13,507 nt of DNA. Origin: a virus. Below are positions 2,889 through 13,507 of the stretch, piece by piece. The position numbers and the translations under genes were made by a program. Under the pieces are notes generated by a model. That model did no database searches, was not told the origin of the DNA, and saw only the letters and a program-made list of their open reading frames with translations. Location: the UHGV virus genome UHGV-0166527; one strand, 5' to 3'. Position 1 is the stretch's first letter. Every line of letters starts with the position of its first letter.

Positions 2889-3962
2889 TCATTTGTCGAT
2901 TTCAATTTTGTCCCATTCCCGTCCACGGCTGTCCCTATACCGCGCCGCCATTGAATCTGATTTATGCCCGAGAAGACGTTGAGCAAACTTATCGCCAATC
3001 TGGTTCCGGTATAGCCTCGCTGACAGGCTACGCAGTTCATGGAATGTTGGCGGGTTTCCATCAAATGAGAGTCCAGATGCATTTCTCGCCTTTGTAAAAT
3101 ACTTTGATACTGTTTTCGGGGAAAGCGGATCGTGATGCTTTGATGCGATTATAGTTTCACTGCTGCTGGCCTCCCTGCATTTTTGTAGTGTATCAGCCAA
3201 TGAGATATTGAGCGCGTCAATCGTTAGCGTCAGCGGAATGGCGAGCTTAGCCCCTGTTTTACTCTGCTCAATGTGAAGATGGTTGTCGTTTATGTCTGAC
3301 CATTTCATTCTGCACAAATCGCCCACTCTCTGCCCTGTAACGACAGCCAAATCCATTGCCAGCCTCAGCCAGATTGGGAGAGGTTCGGCTGCATGGTAAA
3401 TCGCGACATACTCATTAGCTGTCAGCCTTGAGCGCCTTACTTCTGACTTTGCTGTGCGGGTTGCTGTTACCGGATTCGTTTCCACATGCCCCTCGGCTAT
3501 TGCCTCACGAAAAACGTCAACAAGGGTTGACCTGATTAATTTTGCGGAAGCTGCTTTACCTTCTGCTACGTAGGTGTTTAGCATTGCTGCCACCTCTTTC
3601 GTTGATATGTCATTGAGCGGTTTGTCCGGCAATTTTCTTCGAATCGCCCTGATTTTGCTGGCGTAGTCGAGTAGAGTTTTCGGTCTGATACCCCTCTCGC
3701 TGAGGATTGTTTCATATCGGTCAAGCCACGCATGAAGAGTGATTGCGTCAGCGCCTTTAATCCTGTCTATCAGTGACTCACGCCTGTTCTCGGATAGCAA
3801 CTCAATATTGGCCTGAATAGCCTCTGAAACTGCTATCCTTCTGTCTCTGCCTAATCCGAACTCTTTACCCGTCCTTGGGTCCCTGTAGCAGTAATATCCA
3901 TTGTTTCTTATATAAAGGTTAGGGGGTAAATCCCGGCGCTCATGACTTCGCCTTCTTCCCAT
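2889..3962 (-). CDS. int: Tyrosine integrase, lambda Int family (357 aa)
   Basis: N-terminus MGRRRSHERRDLPPNLYIRNNGYYCYRDPRTGKEFGLGRDRRIA and C-terminus RGREWDKIEI closely match recalled lambda Int; catalytic motifs TGQRVGDL, HELRSL, LLGHKSD, ARYRD present. Confidence 0.95.
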   Translation of the reverse strand: MGRRRSHERRDLPPNLYIRNNGYYCYRDPRTGKEFGLGRDRRIAVSEAIQANIELLSENRRESLIDRIKGADAITLHAWLDRYETILSERGIRPKTLLDYASKIRAIRRKLPDKPLNDISTKEVAAMLNTYVAEGKAASAKLIRSTLVDVFREAIAEGHVETNPVTATRTAKSEVRRSRLTANEYVAIYHAAEPLPIWLRLAMDLAVVTGQRVGDLCRMKWSDINDNHLHIEQSKTGAKLAIPLTLTIDALNISLADTLQKCREASSSETIIASKHHDPLSPKTVSKYFTKARNASGLSFDGNPPTFHELRSLSARLYRNQIGDKFAQRLLGHKSDSMAARYRDSRGREWDKIEIDK

Positions 3963-4158
3963 TTCTGATCCTCTTCAAAAGGCTACCTGTTACTGGTCGA
4001 TTTAAGTCAACCTTTACCGCTGATTCGTGGAACAGATACTCTCTTCCATCCTTAACCGGAGGAGGGAATATCCTGCATTCGCGCACCCATCGACGAACTG
4101 TTTCAAGGCTTCTTGGGCGTCGCTGGCGAGCGTTCCACTCCTGAAGTGTCAAGTACAT
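3940..4158 (-). CDS. xis: Excisionase Xis (72 aa), 3' end overlapping int start
   Basis: MYLTLQEWNARQRRPRSLETVRRWVRECRIFPPPVKDGREYLFHESAVKVDLNRPVTG.LLKRIRNGKKAKS is essentially lambda Xis; ATG at 4156-4158 chosen over the longer in-frame ORF start at 4248. Confidence 0.9.
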   Translation of the reverse strand: MYLTLQEWNARQRRPRSLETVRRWVRECRIFPPPVKDGREYLFHESAVKVDLNRPVTGSLLKRIRNGKKAKS

Positions 4159-4170
4159 CGCAAAGTCTCC

Positions 4171-4184
4171 GCAATTACACGCAA
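4171..4184 (-). promoter_or_regulatory. Putative CII-binding site (TTGC-N6-TTGC) of the pI promoter just upstream of the xis ATG
   Basis: Minus-strand sequence TTGCGTGTAATTGC immediately 5' of xis, as in lambda pI; the transcript would start inside xis. Confidence 0.5.
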
Positions 4185-4265
4185 GAAAAAGCCGCATTGA
4201 TGCGGCGATGGTAGGTCTGGATATCATTGAGCAATGAACAGGCCTCATCGAGTGTGAGGCTGTAG

Positions 4266-4768: not shown

Positions 4769-5047
4769 TCATTTTTCCTCTTTTGGTTTATGAATCTGAA
4801 TGGTCATGCCGCTTTGAGTGGTGGCTACAACGACAGAACCAGGCTGAAGGCTGTTAAGATTGAATGCTTCGTAAAACGAATCCAATGCCAGTGCTTTTTT
4901 ATTCTTTCGGTTCCACCAACGCCATCCCTTGCTACAGGCTACACTGACAATCCACTGTCCACTCCTGTAAGCCATATAAAACCAGATGAGCAAAACCTGA
5001 AGGAAGGCTATCCAGTCAATAATCGTATATTTCGCGAAGGAGTCCAT
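4769..5047 (-). CDS. Small predicted membrane protein (92 aa; hydrophobic N-terminal segments, tryptophan-rich juxtamembrane region, soluble C-terminus)
   Basis: ATG at 5045-5047 with AGGAGG 7 nt upstream and TGATG overlap with the upstream gene stop; hydrophobic stretches YTIIDWIAFLQVLLIWFYMAY and WIVSVA. Confidence 0.55.
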   Translation of the reverse strand: MDSFAKYTIIDWIAFLQVLLIWFYMAYRSGQWIVSVACSKGWRWWNRKNKKALALDSFYEAFNLNSLQPGSVVVATTQSGMTIQIHKPKEEK

Positions 5048-5259
5048 CACTTTACCTCCTGCGCCGCTTTGATGATTGCAGCCAGGCAATTCTTGCACGG
5101 AACCTGAAATGAACCCTGCTCAATGCTCAACAGTGCATGCTGAGCATCCTGAAAAAGCCAGTCTGAAAATTGTGGTACATGTCCGCACCACGTCTCTATT
5201 TCATGCTTTGCAAGCTTGGCGCCGTCACGATAGTCATATTTGATAATGTGCTTACTCAC
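5047..5259 (-). CDS. Hypothetical small protein (70 aa), GTG start
   Basis: GTG at 5257-5259 preceded by AGGAGGTGAAGCC; N-terminus SKHIIKYDY is paralogous to the next gene upstream. Confidence 0.5.
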   Translation of the reverse strand: MSKHIIKYDYRDGAKLAKHEIETWCGHVPQFSDWLFQDAQHALLSIEQGSFQVPCKNCLAAIIKAAQEVK

Positions 5260-5273
5260 GGCTTCACCTCCTG

Positions 5274-5531
5274 CTACTGTGATGCTGGCTGATTATCGTT
5301 AACGTATGCATCAGGAAGCAGATACTGCTTAGCCATCCAGTTATCACACTTCATTTCAGTAATGTATTTTGGCAGTTCACCGTGCTGACAATTGAATAGC
5401 CACCACTGGTCACCCATGCTTTGAGGAATAGCGCGCTCATACGTGATACCAAGCTCGCGAATTACTTCTTGCGGGTGCCTGCTTTCTCCTGAATAAGCAG
5501 CACCCATACAGTCATAGCGTAAGTGTTTCAC
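5274..5531 (-). CDS. Hypothetical small protein (86 aa), GTG start
   Basis: GTG at 5529-5531 preceded by AGGAGGTGAAGCC; N-terminus KHLRYDC; the ORF-track 116-aa version (start 5624) is an in-frame extension lacking an RBS. Confidence 0.5.
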   Translation of the reverse strand: MKHLRYDCMGAAYSGESRHPQEVIRELGITYERAIPQSMGDQWWLFNCQHGELPKYITEMKCDNWMAKQYLLPDAYVNDNQPASQ

Positions 5532-5535
5532 GGCT

Positions 5536-5652
5536 TCACCTCCTGCACAGGCTGAAAATAAACGATGTGATTGCCAAATCCTGAATTGCTGTAATTGCCA
5601 GCATCCAGCCATAAATGCTTTCACTGAAATGCCATGCTAGTGCTGTAATCAC
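5536..5652 (-). CDS. Possible small hydrophobic peptide (38 aa, VITALAWHFSESIYGWMLAITAIQDLAITSFIFSLCRR), GTG start overlapping the stop of the 405-aa gene
   Basis: Hand translation; GTG at 5650-5652 within GTGA overlap, preceded by AGGAGGTTAAGCC; not in the ORF track because it is under 60 aa. Confidence 0.35.
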   Translation of the reverse strand: MITALAWHFSESIYGWMLAITAIQDLAITSFIFSLCRR

Positions 5653-6866
5653 GGCTTAACCTCCTGAGGCGGTTCTGGTAGAGACATCCAGTGAGTTACG
5701 TCATCCAAGATATTTCCTGATAAATACGTGAAAGCTCTATATTTTTTGTAATCAATTGGATTTACAACCCAGTTCCAATATGCGGCCACGATTTCACCTT
5801 GACTAAATGCCAGTAACATTTTGGTGTCTTCCGGCATTCGATCACTACAGCTTATCCAACCATCCGGAGTTACCGGAGAATTGCCATTTACCAAGTCAGC
5901 TCGAACATATAGCGTGTCATCATGGTGCTGATTGTGGCTGCACCACGTTAATTCGCTTAACTCGCCATCTTCTGGCCATACTCCAGCTGTTTGCAGCCAG
6001 ATATGGGCTGGCGCATCTTGGCAAGGTGTATTAACTGGCAACTTGTAAGTTTGGCTTACAGGTTGGCTACCCTGAAGCATGGCAGCGCGGCAGGCATACT
6101 CAACGCCCTTAACTGCATCTGCGCAGTAGTTATAGCGATTGCATTCCACTAATTTCCGTTTGAGTTTTTCAATTGCCTGCGCGACATCAGCCTGTATTAC
6201 AGGAACTGGCGGAACGGCTGTTTGCTCTCGAACGTCATTAGTCGCTATCGGTTCTGCTGCCAACTGGCTGGCATATTTGTTAATGGTAACGATAAGCTCT
6301 TGCTCAGCCTCATCCAGACAATCACCGATACCTCGCCTGTCACCGTCAAAATCATCGAAATCGGCACGAATCTTGGCAACCTTCAGGATTGCGGACAACA
6401 CCTCACTAGGAATTACCGGATAGTTGGTTGATGTTTCCGCGATTTCCCGAAAATTATTGGTTGACGAATTCTTGTTTTCCCGAAAGTTTCCGGACTGAAG
6501 CATGGCGGCGCGGCAGGCGTTCCAGCCATCTGCGTAACAATCTCTGTGTGTCTTGAAATATGTCACCGCCCTTGGTACATCGTTTACGTCTATTTCATCC
6601 GGCACAACCGGCGCAGGTGAGTCAGCATAAACAGGAATAACGTCCGGTTGCTCTTTATTGCTTTCATCCGTTAAAGCCAAGAATAATTTTCCGGCCGGAT
6701 GTTTGAAAATATAAGCAACTGGTTCTGCTTCCAGCGATGCCAGCGCCAACTTGAACGCCTGAAGCTCAATGGCACTGTTGGTATCCAGTCCAAACGGTAA
6801 TTCATCACGATTGGCTTCGTATTCAGCGATAGTTTGCTTCAGCCATTCTTTGGTTAGTTCAGCCAT
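5649..6866 (-). CDS. Phage early-region protein (405 aa) with an internal duplicated motif (ACRAAMLQ) and a C-terminal region reminiscent of DUF551-type phage domains
   Basis: ATG at 6864-6866 (MAELTKEW) chosen because the upstream ATG at 6917 overlaps the preceding gene and lacks an SD; family assignment is from memory and uncertain. Confidence 0.6.
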   Translation of the reverse strand: MAELTKEWLKQTIAEYEANRDELPFGLDTNSAIELQAFKLALASLEAEPVAYIFKHPAGKLFLALTDESNKEQPDVIPVYADSPAPVVPDEIDVNDVPRAVTYFKTHRDCYADGWNACRAAMLQSGNFRENKNSSTNNFREIAETSTNYPVIPSEVLSAILKVAKIRADFDDFDGDRRGIGDCLDEAEQELIVTINKYASQLAAEPIATNDVREQTAVPPVPVIQADVAQAIEKLKRKLVECNRYNYCADAVKGVEYACRAAMLQGSQPVSQTYKLPVNTPCQDAPAHIWLQTAGVWPEDGELSELTWCSHNQHHDDTLYVRADLVNGNSPVTPDGWISCSDRMPEDTKMLLAFSQGEIVAAYWNWVVNPIDYKKYRAFTYLSGNILDDVTHWMSLPEPPQEVKP

Positions 6867-6870
6867 ATCC

Positions 6871-7323
6871 CTAATTCCCCTTGATGCTGACTTTGACGCC
6901 AACCTTGCGAATCTCATCGGCGCATCTGTTCACGATACTCCGGTGAAACTCACAAAAAATTTTCGCCGACTGCGGCCCTAATGGGTGAACATCGTGCGCA
7001 CGCGGCAGTACAACCTCCCGCGCCTCCATGTCAGCAATCCGCTTGTCTTTGGCTTCCAGCTCATCCAGCAGCGCCAGCACGGTAGCTGGATTGGCTGCGG
7101 CGATGAATTCAGCATTGGCCTGCTGTTCTATTTGGAAATCTTCATCGAAACCGCTTTCAGGATGCGCTCCTTCAATTCTGCAAATGGGAATATATCCAGC
7201 AGCCTCGCGATGAATTAGCGCATCATCACCATCAAATCGGCCCTTTCCATATTCGAGCGACCACTCGCCACACGTTGCTTTTTCTGCCTTAGCACGCAGT
7301 GCCTGATAGTCAATCTTGCTCAC
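6871..7323 (-). CDS. Hypothetical phage protein (150 aa), possibly Ead/Ea22-like; GTG start
   Basis: GTG at 7321-7323 preceded by AAAGGAGG 6 nt upstream; N-terminus MSKIDYQALRAKAEKATCGEW resembles recalled Ead/Ea22-like annotations. Confidence 0.55.
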   Translation of the reverse strand: MSKIDYQALRAKAEKATCGEWSLEYGKGRFDGDDALIHREAAGYIPICRIEGAHPESGFDEDFQIEQQANAEFIAAANPATVLALLDELEAKDKRIADMEAREVVLPRAHDVHPLGPQSAKIFCEFHRSIVNRCADEIRKVGVKVSIKGN

Positions 7324-7989: not shown

Positions 7990-8168
7990 TTCTTCCCACT
8001 CCGCAACATCGCATTCAGATATTTGTTTTGATTCACTGATGGAAAAGAATTTCTCTTAAGCAATTCCTCTCTCGATGGCATTGGCTTTACGCGTTGGCGA
8101 ATAATCATTTCTGCCGGAAGAATGCCGGGATTGTATGCAAGTCCTCTCATGGTAAATTCCTCAGTCAT
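7986..8168 (-). CDS. Hypothetical small protein (about 60 aa; start uncertain, alternatives at 8183 or 8300 TTG)
   Basis: ORF in frame with ATG candidates at 8166-8168 and 8181-8183; no clear SD; bounded by coupled neighbours. Confidence 0.35.
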
Positions 8169-8454
8169 TACTGATAGCGCCATAGCGTGAGCGGTAATTA
8201 CGCAGGCGCGGGTCAATTTCAGGGAAGTGGGTATATGTGGCTTTGCGGAATGGTCGGATTGATGTCTGGTAAATTCGCTCGCGTTCTTCTTTCTCTGCAA
8301 GCCATATACAGTGGCGAAATTCCTTTTCCTTTTTCGTTTCCTGCGGTAGCGACATTATCCGGTTGTAGTTTTTTCTGAATTTATCCAGCACCTCCGATAC
8401 GGAATTGCCGGAACAGCGGCGCGGGTCATCCGCACCATACAGAGGCGCTGGCAT
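8161..8454 (-). CDS. Hypothetical phage protein (97 aa)
   Basis: ATG at 8452-8454 preceded by AAGGA 7 nt upstream; the ORF-track start at 8475 is a TTG. Confidence 0.5.
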
Positions 8455-8477
8455 AATGGAATCCTTATTTTGCAAAT

Positions 8478-8861
8478 CTAGAAGGGAATTGAATCGTCGT
8501 ATTCAGGATGATTTTGATGATTGCTACTTTGCTGCTGTTGGCTGTTTCCTGAAGTTGCAAATCCAATCTTTGCATTCAGTAATTCAAGATTGATTGATTG
8601 ACCATTTTGCCCCTGATAAACATCAACCCTGATGTTTTCTCCGGTAATTTCAACAATGCCACCTTCAACAAGAACACTACGGTAGTAATCCGCTTGCGCT
8701 CCCGGCTTGGCAAATACAACGGCGCTGTAGTTTGTCCATTCTTTCTTTTTTGTCTGGCGATCGTAATACTGAACGCCAGCACGGATGTTGAATCCGATAT
8801 TTTCCCCGGCCTGAAACTCTCTTGCGGGCTTGTTTAGTCTTACAGTAATCGAATGTGCCAT
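8478..8861 (-). CDS. ssb: Single-stranded DNA-binding protein, phage SSB-like (127 aa)
   Basis: OB-fold-like core and C-terminal acidic tail ending DDSIPF (compare E. coli SSB DDDIPF); ATG at 8859-8861 overlaps erf stop (TAATG). Confidence 0.75.
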   Translation of the reverse strand: MAHSITVRLNKPAREFQAGENIGFNIRAGVQYYDRQTKKKEWTNYSAVVFAKPGAQADYYRSVLVEGGIVEITGENIRVDVYQGQNGQSINLELLNAKIGFATSGNSQQQQSSNHQNHPEYDDSIPF

Positions 8862-9466
8862 TAAGCAGCCGCTCCTTCTAATTCGTCTCGTCTGATGTTG
8901 TAAACGTCCTGCGCTTTGTGCTGCTCCGGTGTGCCTTCGAGCATCTTCCACGCTTTGGCGAACGCCTGTTTAAGCTCTTCTACGGTGTTTTTCTGCATTG
9001 CTGCGTCAGTGAATGCTTTTAGAACCTGTTCAGGCGTAGGTGATGGTTTTGATTGCTTTGCTGCTGCGTTCTGCTGATGTTTATGCTCGTCTGTATCTGC
9101 ATCTTTCGCATCATCAATGCCGAACAAACCATTGAGGCAATACTTGCGTGCATAAGAGCTTGTGGCTCCCGTAACTTGTGCAGAATCCATTCCTTTCTTG
9201 CTTTCTTCCTCTCGTGCAAGAGCGGTTGCTGTATGACTGTTTTCGCCATCAGTAATAGTTGCCGTGGCTTTCACGTAATACCGATCACCAATCAACACAA
9301 CTTCATCGCTGATTGATAAAAACAGACCATTCAGTAACGGCTTAACGCCTTCAAGAATATCTTCGCAGCTTCTGTATTTATATTTACCGAATGAGTTGTA
9401 CTGATTTTTTGGCGCGTTCAGATTCTCCTGAATGGCTGCCAGTCTTGCGTAAAATTCTTTGCTCAT
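8861..9466 (-). CDS. erf: Single-strand annealing protein, ERF family (P22 Erf-like, 201 aa)
   Basis: MSKEFYARLAAIQENLNAPKNQYNSFGKYKYRSCEDILEGVKPLL... closely matches recalled P22 Erf; ATG at 9464-9466. Confidence 0.85.
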   Translation of the reverse strand: MSKEFYARLAAIQENLNAPKNQYNSFGKYKYRSCEDILEGVKPLLNGLFLSISDEVVLIGDRYYVKATATITDGENSHTATALAREEESKKGMDSAQVTGATSSYARKYCLNGLFGIDDAKDADTDEHKHQQNAAAKQSKPSPTPEQVLKAFTDAAMQKNTVEELKQAFAKAWKMLEGTPEQHKAQDVYNIRRDELEGAAA

Positions 9467-9555
9467 ATGTTTGTTCTCAGAATGGACATGGCCCAAGGAA
9501 ATAACGCTGATTTAATACTTCAGTCTTTGCCGCATTTAAAAATACGCGAACACCT

Positions 9556-10942: not shown

Positions 10943-10970
10943 CCAAAAATAAAGGCCGACTATGCGGCCT
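10943..10970 (-). terminator. Intrinsic terminator (minus strand): stem AGGCCG / loop CATAGT / CGGCCT followed by TTATTTTTGG; the loop contains the stop codon of the 207-aa gene
   Basis: 6-bp GC-rich stem plus U-rich tract read on the minus strand; tL1-like position after the N operon proximal genes. Confidence 0.6.
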
Positions 10971-11583
10971 CGGAAGGAAGTCCAATCATCTTATTCAAAT
11001 CTTCTACCCGTAAAGCAGGAAGTGCTGTACTTGCTTTGTCTGCTTCTTTTGGTAGCAATTCTTTGCTTTCAGGCCAAACTTCAATAAGTCGCTTAACTGT
11101 TGTGACTGAGTTCAAAGCAGCCCATACATTTGATTCGATATCCTTTTTCTTGGCTTCAAGTTTTTGTTGCAATGCGCAGATTTCATCAAACCTTTTTGTT
11201 ATTTCGTGTTCTGCGTCAAACATGCATTTATCTTTGGTCGGAGTAGGGAGCAATATATCTTCGCCGTTGCCGTCTTTCCCATATGAATGCCATCCAACCC
11301 TTCTGCCAGATACAGTCAGATAAATCGAAGTAGAACGAACATCGCATGAGTAAAATGAACATCCCATCTTTTCAATTTCTTCACTTATAGCTACTAACCT
11401 GGATGATAACTGATCCACTTCATCAGTTTTCTTTTTACCGCCAAACGCAACAACCCTGGCGTCAAGTGCAAGCTGGTTCTTTAACCTTGTTACTTCTTCA
11501 AGTTCAGTGAAAACCCCAGACTTAATTAAAGCGTTACGAGCGATTTTCTCTTTCATTCTCGTAGTTAAGCGGATTGATGACAT
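10960..11583 (-). CDS. Hypothetical protein (207 aa) immediately downstream of N, upstream of the first terminator
   Basis: ATG at 11581-11583 (MSSIRLTTRMKEKIARNAL...) preceded by GAGAGGAA; soluble, no recognised family; occupies the ral/sieB accessory slot. Confidence 0.65.
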   Translation of the reverse strand: MSSIRLTTRMKEKIARNALIKSGVFTELEEVTRLKNQLALDARVVAFGGKKKTDEVDQLSSRLVAISEEIEKMGCSFYSCDVRSTSIYLTVSGRRVGWHSYGKDGNGEDILLPTPTKDKCMFDAEHEITKRFDEICALQQKLEAKKKDIESNVWAALNSVTTVKRLIEVWPESKELLPKEADKASTALPALRVEDLNKMIGLPSEAA

Positions 11584-11594
11584 ATTAATTCCTC

Positions 11595-11921
11595 TCAAAT
11601 AAGTGGTTTGCTGCCTAATTTCATTTTCTGGCGACCAACACAAGTCACACCCATTTCACTGCGTGGCTTGCTGTACCATGTGCGCTGATTCTTGCGTTCA
11701 ATACGTTGCAGGTTGCTTTCAATCTGTTCGTGGTATTCAGCCAGCACCGTAAGGTCTATCGGATTCAGTGCGCTTTCTACTCGTGATTTCGGTTTGCGAT
11801 TCAGCGAGAGAATAGGGCGGTTAACTGGCTTTGCGCTTACCCCAACCAACAGGGGATTTGCTGCTTTCCATTGAGCCTGTTTCTCTGCGCGACGTTCGCG
11901 GCGGCGTGTTTGTGCATCCAT
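11595..11921 (-). CDS. N: Antitermination protein N (lambda-type, 108 aa)
   Basis: MDAQTRRRERRAEKQAQWKAANPLLVGVSAKPVNRPILSLNRKPKSRVESALNPIDLTVLAEYH... matches recalled lambda N including the arginine-rich motif; AGGAGA SD upstream of ATG 11919-11921. Confidence 0.9.
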   Translation of the reverse strand: MDAQTRRRERRAEKQAQWKAANPLLVGVSAKPVNRPILSLNRKPKSRVESALNPIDLTVLAEYHEQIESNLQRIERKNQRTWYSKPRSEMGVTCVGRQKMKLGSKPLI

Positions 11922-12078
11922 CTGGATTCTCCTGTCAGTTAGCTTTGGTTGTGTGTGGGAGTCGTAGTCCTGAACGAAAACACCCCGCAATGGCACATTG
12001 GCAGCTAATCCGGATTCGCACTTCCGGCCAATGCTTCGTTTCGTATCACACACACCAAAGCCTTCTGCTTTGAATGCT

Positions 12079-12272: not shown

Positions 12273-13507
<1,235 letters not shown>

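Follow-up and report, generated by a model that had tools for sequence, protein, structure and literature searches.

The gene and its repeated box

The stretch of DNA analysed here (the window) comprises 13,507 nucleotides (nt) of the UHGV virus genome UHGV-0166527 and represents one end of a lambdoid prophage inserted next to torS, with its genes on the minus strand. Our subject is a gene of this prophage (5649–6866, minus strand) that encodes 405 amino acids (aa) and contains, within its open reading frame (ORF), two nearly identical copies of a short sequence that we term box C. The gene was delimited by its ORF and translation, with an ATG at 6866; a longer form of the ORF reaches 6917, the homologues all begin at a MAELTKE-type start, and the upstream gene ends at 6871. 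From the ORF and the names of its homologues, it is a mosaic early-left-operon gene that contains DUF551 and resembles P7 Upf89.5 and P22 EaA.

A repeat finder and a pattern search placed the direct repeat CTGAAGCATGGC(A/G)GCGCGGCAGGC at 6072–6095 and 6495–6518, with 23 of 24 positions identical and, according to the repeat finder, no extension past 24 nt in either copy. The initial annotation of this DNA had reported the repeat and located its first copy correctly, but had set the second at 6497–6520 and the distance at 425 nt; the start-to-start spacing is 423 nt, which equals 141 codons and thus keeps the copies in frame. On the coding strand, the repeat reads GCCTGCCGCGC(C/T)GCCATGCTTCAG, that is, GCCTGCCGCGCCGCCATGCTTCAG and GCCTGCCGCGCTGCCATGCTTCAG, and the single base difference is synonymous (GCC/GCT, Ala). 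Both copies encode ACRAAMLQ, at aa 117–124 and 258–265, as had been proposed from the translation. The comparison with chance that had been called for also came out in favour of the repeat, as two matches never arose in 200 dinucleotide-preserving shuffles of the window, even when three mismatches were allowed.

As judged from sequence comparison, the gene is a string of cassettes and boxes in the order N-terminal helices, box A, U1, box C, middle cassette, box C, D2, box D, DUF551, and box E, all on the minus strand. Match positions are given below along the query, to which 5648 is added to obtain the window coordinate. The string begins with a variable N-terminal helical hairpin (aa 1–39, 6750–6866) that differs among homologues otherwise 80–98% identical and that was modelled by AlphaFold2 (AF2) with a predicted local distance difference test score (pLDDT) of 71–84. 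Box A (LALASLEAEPVAY, aa 40–52, 6711–6749) forms the joint between these helices and U1; matches to other genomes end there at query 1080–1098 (window 6728–6746), and in the alignment of homologues aa 1–39 are variable and aa 41–52 conserved. The upstream cassette U1 (aa 53–113, 6528–6710), which lies within a phrog_5117 match over aa 1–125, includes a PAPVVPDE box. In P0109 and POCJ13, another cassette stands in place of U1 and is joined at GWNACRAAMLQ. The first copy of box C (6495–6527) consists of the core 24-mer at 6495–6518 (aa 117–124) and the adjoining GGCTGGAAC at 6519–6527, which encodes GWN (aa 114–116). The linker after this copy holds an imperfect 33-nt tandem repeat (6424–6488; 75% identity, spacing 33) that encodes the 11-residue units NFRENKNSSTN and NFREIAETSTN; it was reported by the repeat finder and not by Tandem Repeats Finder, and a one-unit form occurs in locus L042 and two close homologues.

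The middle cassette (aa 125–257, 6096–6494; phrog_14306), predicted by AF2 with low confidence to be helical, separates this copy from the second copy of box C (aa 258–265, 6072–6095), which was recognised by the repeat search and by the ends of matches. Both boxes are present in 112 of 120 close homologues of the protein. In the second copy, 111 of the 120 have His (CAC; ACHAAMLQ) and four or five share the Arg (CGC) of the window, so that the window copy is one step nearer the canonical box; a point mutation could account for this, as could a micro-conversion from another box. The downstream cassette D2 (aa 266–327, 5886–6071; part of phrog_60) starts with the linker GSQPVSQTYKLP and leads to box D (GNSPVTPDGWISCSDRMP, aa 328–345, 5832–5885), the most widespread joint by match ends and the start of DUF551; many E. 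coli matches span query 177–237 only (window 5825–5885). The DUF551 domain itself occupies aa 336–401 (5664–5861), with a full-length match to PF04448 (profile positions 1–68, E = 5.5e-20, 72.4 bits against a cut-off of 22), and was modelled as beta-strands with pLDDT 78–87. This match bears out a resemblance of the C-terminus to DUF551 that the initial annotation had named, and homologues at 75–90% identity are themselves called "DUF551 domain-containing protein". At the end of the gene, box E (CAGGAGGTTAAGCCGTGA, ..QEVKP*, 5649–5666) is an intergenic boundary with an AGGAGG ribosome-binding site and a GTG start overlapping the TGA stop.

Three PHROG families tile the protein, namely phrog_5117 over aa 1–125 (E = 1.8e-24), phrog_14306 over aa 113–267 (E = 7.7e-82), and phrog_60 over aa 265–404 (E = 2.2e-60), each annotated "unknown function". 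Their borders coincide with the two copies of the motif, a first sign that it marks the borders of modules and not their cores. The AF2 model (121 sequences) has a mean pLDDT of 52.5 and is confident only for aa 1–45 and the DUF551 beta-domain. Both copies of the motif are predicted at the C-terminal ends of helices (aa 115–124 and 221–264), followed by a low-confidence linker rich in Gly, Ser, Pro, and Asn; such a helix end with a flexible linker would explain why joints at the box are tolerated. Searches with the 405-aa protein gave no match in the PDB sequences, one sub-threshold chance match in NCBIfam, and no match to Ead_Ea22 (PF13935) at E ≤ 1, which places the protein outside that family; neither this protein nor five neighbouring proteins matched the PADLOC anti-phage defence models. 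Separately, aa 36–90 (6597–6761), a segment after box A, and aa 272–335 (5862–6053), a segment before box D, align with a Smith-Waterman score of 34 (21.8 ± 4.0 for shuffles, of which 26 of 2000 reach the score), and both end in SP.V.PD. This weak similarity may go back to a small beta module that was duplicated long ago, or boxes B and D may be related to each other.

Match boundaries and the distribution of the box

Among the phage records searched and 5426 complete E. coli genomes, none matched the window gene over at least 80% of its length; parts of it were matched at 90–99% identity in 2538 of the E. coli genomes. The ends of matches cluster at query 177–185 (window 5825–5833), 422 (6070), 862–889 (6510–6537), 949, and 1080–1098, of which 422 is the outer edge of the copy at 6072–6095 and 862–889 corresponds to the other copy with its GWN codons. 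When the gene was compared by BLASTN with 162 fetched loci, the starts and ends of high-scoring segment pairs piled up at gene positions 381–450 and 821–890, which are the two boxes, with further pile-ups at 171–210, 1021–1100, and 1211–1269. The initial annotation had also raised the possibility of a recombination-prone site, and this part of it gains comparative support, since matches to other genomes start or stop at the two copies, the segment between the copies is found elsewhere as a unit, and in one natural gene (L074) the partner upstream of copy 1 is joined directly to the linker of copy 2.

In Stx1a phages, ev017, and PhiR57_1, the match is exactly the box-to-box interval (query 422–883, window 6070–6531), and in ev017 the middle cassette is a reading frame of its own with a stop just past box 2 (..ACHAAMLQGKRE, MLQGKRE). 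The EaA gene of Shigella phage POCJ13 matches at 98.5% from gene position 391, behind a wholly different upstream cassette, and in the IMG/VR locus L074 the match, at 97.2%, runs up to position 423, beyond which come the box and linker of the second copy and then a different cassette. These start and end positions show two recent exchanges bracketing a 33-nt interval, which is the box. The window D1 cassette also occurs behind 27 foreign upstream flanks (Ux-D1), and U2 before three foreign downstream flanks (U2-Dx). The variation in copy number that the initial annotation had suggested looking for among homologues exists in another sense; it consists of whole cassettes present or absent between boxes and of one or two units of the 11-aa linker repeat.

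Two candidate cases of a simple deletion were considered and rejected. L074 is not a precise deletion between two boxes, as it has U1 joined to a D2-type box and linker followed by another cassette and is therefore a recombinant, and the E. coli match H69 is a decayed pseudogene region. In E. coli 266917_2 (L181, NZ_CP026723.1, 894–1787), the equivalent prophage region has decayed to annotated partial DUF551 pseudogenes, so such mosaic genes are evidently lost piecemeal too.

Box C is widespread outside the close homologues. The exact pattern GCCTGCCRCGCNGCCATGCTTCAG was found in at least 120 IMG/VR contigs, and each of the matches listed, translated in frame, reads ..(G)(W/F)N-ACRAAMLQ-.. between mutually unrelated peptides. 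From the matches listed, the 123 instances flanked by 120 nt on either side were clustered by their flanks, resulting in 53 upstream clusters, 54 downstream clusters, and 88 combinations of the two. Sixteen upstream types occur with two or more downstream types (up to six), and 17 downstream types with two or more upstream types (up to nine). Column conservation falls from 100% in the core to background (30–50%) within 9–12 nt, giving a consensus of GGCTGGAAC, the core, and GG. Pairs of instances were then compared in which one flank was shared at 90% identity or more and the other was different. Among pairs sharing the upstream flank only, 137 of 180 lose similarity at +12 to +29, and among those sharing the downstream flank only, 238 of 246 lose it at -12 to +5. 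Box C thus shows the three properties by which a boundary sequence is recognised, namely unrelated flanks, reassortment of flanks, and similarity that ends at its edges.

A second scan, degenerate at all synonymous positions (GCNTGYMGNGCNGCNATGYTNCAR), removed the codon bias of the exact one and returned about 121 instances coding for ACRAAMLQ. The 24-mer is identical in 71 of them, and nearly all of the others differ by one to three synonymous bases. Most ACRAAMLQ instances keep CTT, a codon that E. coli seldom uses for Leu. Among the 5426 complete genomes of E. coli, 698 contain the 35-mer consensus, up to four times each; it was located at 817 places in all, 86 of them on P1-like plasmids. 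The identity shared at the box is 24 nt in most instances and 28–35 nt in 721 E. coli records. The box was further found in 38 phage records (Salmonella, Klebsiella, Enterobacter, and Escherichia), among them P7 and a lytic Enterobacter phage of the Autographiviridae, and in genomes that represent species of Leclercia, Citrobacter, and Intestinirhabdus as well as several species of Enterobacter. In 149 distinct box-containing ORFs, it is followed by at most 10 residues in 19 and by more than 60 in 118; in some small genes it forms the extreme C-terminus (MLQEVK*, MLRGGKP*, MLQGKGE*), and in others it is internal. Two boxes occur in four of the 149.

Two of these genomes merit comment. In the Enterobacter phage SDFMU_Pec (L165, OQ884028.1, 1138–1545), a box with 34 identical nt is the C-terminus (..GWNACRAAMLQEVK*) of a 135-aa protein; this phage is classified in the lytic Autographiviridae, so the pool of cassettes seems to extend beyond temperate phages. 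In phage ev017 (L180, NC_049948.1, 977–1228), the start of gp36 as annotated reads box C in another frame (MPATLPCFREKESDM..) and is probably mis-called, the real start likely being an ATG after the box-terminated gene; the ORF upstream of gp36 looks frameshifted.

Throughout the 149 ORFs, the order of the boxes is fixed as A, B, C, D, E. Box A (..ALASLEAEPVA..) precedes box C in 79 of them and box B (..PAPVVPDE..) in 44, and neither ever follows it. Box D, an SPV.PD-type motif (..GNSPV(I/T)PDGW..), follows box C in 76 and precedes it in two, and box E, a C-terminal end of the type ..P(Q/K)(Q/E).. (..PQEVK* and variants), is present in 79. The cassettes between the boxes are mutually unrelated, and just two of them have a Pfam match, namely DUF551 and the dATP/dGTP pyrophosphohydrolase PF04447 (formerly DUF550). 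The latter cassette was found in five IMG/VR ORFs (L105, L157, L017, L067, and L123); its position relative to box C varies, some proteins having it upstream and others downstream, and in L157 and L017 it is fused to DUF551.

Proposed crossover at the box and competing explanations

We consider it likely that the two repeats are instances of one conserved in-frame junction box at which cassettes are shuffled by homologous recombination. In the mosaic Ead/Ea22/EaA/DUF551 accessory genes that temperate phages of Enterobacteriaceae carry, box C would then mark where exchangeable cassettes end. Its 24–35 bp of near-identity would act as a homology patch, within which a crossover promoted by a phage single-strand-annealing protein such as Erf, or by RecA, would swap cassettes and leave the frame intact. 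Erf is encoded 2 kb upstream of the box gene in the same operon, and its presence together with that of the anti-RecBCD protein Abc2 makes homologous crossover at the box plausible. The size of the box points in the same direction. A minimal efficient pairing segment (MEPS) of 23–27 bp is quoted for Red-beta and one of 31–34 bp for RecA (PMC3945230), so that 24–35 nt lies at or above the former and near the latter. An Erf-family recombinase was as efficient as Red-beta on diverged substrates, and Rad52-like phage recombinases, an Erf included, drive the formation of mosaics (PMC3945230), which likewise makes homologous crossover at the box plausible. As the two copies in the window are direct and 141 codons apart, an in-frame deletion or duplication of the middle cassette is possible, and unequal exchange between the copies would delete or duplicate 423 bp.

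Several observations weigh against this interpretation. We infer the crossover at the box from the pattern alone, and some joints lie slightly off it: P7 and the window diverge about 22–33 nt downstream of box 2, and POCJ13 fuses PVPV straight to TPDGW. The IMG/VR contigs, at least 120 with the exact pattern, are largely related enterobacterial prophages, so the raw counts are not independent, and flank clustering corrects for this in part. The protein model is poor at the first copy of the motif, with pLDDT below 50. The peptide is under purifying selection, with 157 ACRAAMLQ against 19 non-synonymous variants among near-matches, and a role at the protein level could therefore be the reason the box is kept. 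Third-position divergence inside the box is 0.167 for pairs with unrelated flanks, and 0.07–0.22 in homologous flanks. Extra conservation of synonymous sites in the box was accordingly rejected (0.064–0.170 in the box against 0.072–0.221 in homologous flanks), and the values show no selection on the DNA beyond common descent and selection on the peptide.

These last points would also fit an explanation based on the peptide. GWNACRAAMLQ could be a short helix with a role of its own, in interaction, oligomerisation, or processing, that every cassette protein needs. The nucleotide identity would then reflect common descent, with cassettes joined by illegitimate recombination and filtered by selection. 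We regard this explanation, which is compatible with a junction box, as possible and on the whole unlikely. Besides the near-invariance of the peptide and a synonymous divergence no lower than that of homologous flanks, it would accommodate the frequent position of the box at the extreme C-terminus of small proteins (MLQEVK*, MLQGKGE*) and the usual G, S, or A after the Q. However, no Pfam, NCBIfam, or PDB family covers the box, which the model places next to linkers in regions of low confidence, and His, Tyr, and Ser substitutions occur at the Cys and Arg positions. Illegitimate joining would also not place the same 24–35 nt at both edges with breaks exactly at the edges of the box; with the same sequence at so many different joints, joining of that kind followed by selection would not leave such a pattern.

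The initial annotation had proposed instead that the internal duplication may mark a repeated binding module of the 405-aa protein. Two copies in the same frame of one ORF, a Cys 8–11 residues upstream of each, and the weak, separate similarity of aa 36–90 to aa 272–335 would fit this idea, but a BLASTP comparison of aa 1–156 with the other 249 residues aligns the eight motif residues only (8 of 11 identities, E = 0.007), the flanks being unrelated. The upstream Cys is absent from other upstream cassettes, only four of the 149 ORFs have two boxes, and the 24-mer stands in more than 100 other, unrelated contexts. We therefore judge a duplicated module to be very unlikely, and the earlier interpretation as a whole is supported in part. 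That the sequence acts as a nucleic-acid signal, be it an RNA structure, a binding site for a regulatory protein or small RNA, or the site of a site-specific recombinase, would suit its strong nucleotide identity across genera and is nonetheless extremely unlikely. Folding of both copies and of the consensus box, on either strand, is no better than that of shuffles (z from -0.28 to +1.34), the window has no Rfam match, and a tRNA scan of it was empty. The box is always read in the single frame that gives ACRAAMLQ, its variation is mostly synonymous, and it has no dyad symmetry; the only recombinase gene associated with it is int, which acts at att. A chance repeat or an assembly artefact has next to no probability, given the shuffles described above and an architecture that recurs in 112 of 120 close homologues, which come from independent assemblies.

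If the two repeats are junction boxes, boxes A–E might further form a fixed "grammar" that is kept for evolvability, allowing a natural in-frame shuffling of cassettes analogous to exon shuffling, although we hold this to be doubtful. Patches of homology of MEPS size would let phage recombinases build new multi-domain accessory proteins from a pan-Enterobacteriaceae pool that reaches lytic phages and includes enzyme cassettes such as the dATP/dGTP pyrophosphohydrolase. Were this true, the conservation of the boxes would be owed at least partly to second-order selection for recombination and not to protein function.

Related systems and the surrounding prophage

Short conserved boundary (linker) sequences at the mosaic joints of lambdoid phages are reportedly part of the modular theory of Susskind and Botstein, and Clark et al. 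(2001), working on HK620, are said to have described boundary sequences at such joints. Like these, box C is a short conserved sequence between unrelated modules and a proposed site of homologous crossover, with box E of the window as an intergenic example; unlike them, it is intragenic, connects protein cassettes in frame, and codes for a conserved peptide. Recombination at the His-box and other conserved motifs of T-even tail-fibre genes, reportedly described by Tetart et al. (1998), appears closest in spirit to box C, as short in-frame motifs separate variable segments there too and recombination between the motifs swaps domains. Tail fibres, in contrast, are virion adhesins under host-range selection and not early accessory proteins, and the phages, the motif, and the likely recombinases differ. 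A long-standing idea holds that short conserved boundary sequences guide homologous recombination among phage modules, and at most boundaries none could be found (PMC3029335). Box C would be an unusually clear and abundant example of such a sequence, intragenic and in frame.

Within the early-left region, AWNACRAAMLQ stands directly before DUF551 in the IMG/VR ORF L083, whose N-terminal region presumably resembles lambda Ea22. Ea22 of lambda and Stx phages has been described as composed of mosaic blocks, with DUF551 serving as a "portable" domain at the C-terminus and with two variants sharing a 16-aa segment that is left unexplained (PMC10834534). It occupies the same early-left position as the window gene, between the recombination genes and xis/int; the window protein differs in not having PF13935, which is found instead in the neighbouring gene at 6871–7323. 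The box is neither named nor shown as text in that paper or its supplement (PMC10834534), and neither the motif (CRAAML, RAAMLQ, NACRAA) nor its 15-mer appeared in a relevant context in the text of the limited collection of papers searched. P7 upf89.5 shares 55% of the window gene at 99% identity, both boxes included, and the genes annotated as EaA in POCJ13, mEp043, and Salmonella phages carry the box. P7 Upf89.5 and P22-type EaA differ from the window protein in the cassettes at the N-terminus and the C-terminus, and each of these proteins is annotated as having an unknown function. Like the crossover envisaged at box C, the recombination catalysed by the Rad52-like Red-beta, RecT, and Erf (De Paepe et al. 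2014, PMC3945230) acts on short or diverged homologies and builds mosaics, but exchange was measured there over 300–3000 bp of partial identity and not at one isolated box of 24–35 bp. Large-scale domain shuffling in phage proteins has been documented with proteins of unknown function explicitly excluded (PMC10684548).

Phage mosaic joints usually have no recognisable sequence, so that homologous and illegitimate recombination have been argued mostly on indirect grounds. Here, one box is common, in frame, to about 50 by 50 partner cassettes among the matches listed; the E. coli prophages that have it number in the hundreds, and it extends over several genera. Its abundance provides a concrete substrate for direct tests of domain swapping by Erf or Red-beta over 24–35 bp, and the pair of boxes in the window flags a site where this prophage can lose or gain a 141-codon cassette. 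The mosaicism also explains the difficulties of annotation in these genes, with split, fused, or frameshifted calls and the mixed names EaA, Ea22, and DUF551, and the boxes offer natural split points for dissecting early-transcribed proteins of unknown function.

The prophage around the gene can be followed along the minus strand from the host border inwards. The host sensor kinase gene torS (50–2794) adjoins a lambda-type integrase gene (2889–3962), so the prophage/host junction (att) should lie in 2795–2888. An excisionase gene (3940–4248) and small genes lead to the box gene, and beyond it lie the Ead/Ea22-domain gene (6871–7323; PF13935, 80.6 bits), a DUF2737 gene, abc2 for the anti-RecBCD protein (8161–8475), erf (8861–9496), the N gene (11595–12053), and a cI-type repressor gene (12674–13306). 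The best relatives of the whole window are HK022, HK446, Sf101, and Stx1a phages, each of which matches about one-third of it in several pieces; the int/xis region has about 97% identity to HK022. By these sequence relationships, the prophage is of HK022/P22-like type. Together with the gene order, the relatives place the box gene in the distal early-left operon, equivalent to the exo-xis/b region of lambda, a region known to be highly mosaic (PMC2629481; PMC10834534).

Box E is a classical intergenic boundary sequence in this same operon. Its 18-mer CAGGAGGTKAAGCCGTGA (variable form CAGGAGGT(G/T)AAGCCGTGA) has three exact or near-exact copies at successive gene borders on the minus strand, at 5256–5273, 5528–5545, and 5649–5666, and none of 200 shuffles of the window gave three matches; the exact 18-mer is present in only five of 181 fetched loci. 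ORFs begin at the GTGs of these copies, which points to real downstream genes, namely a 38-aa hydrophobic ORF (5536–5652), a GTG-started gene near 5531 that reads VKHLRYDCMGAAY.. and lies within the listed ORF 5274–5624, and a 70-aa ORF (5047–5259). Elsewhere in the early-left operon, directly downstream of N and between N and erf, a gene on the minus strand (10960–11643) encodes a 227-aa protein with a full-length match to nucleotide modification associated domain 5 (Nmad5; PF18757, E = 1.2e-69).

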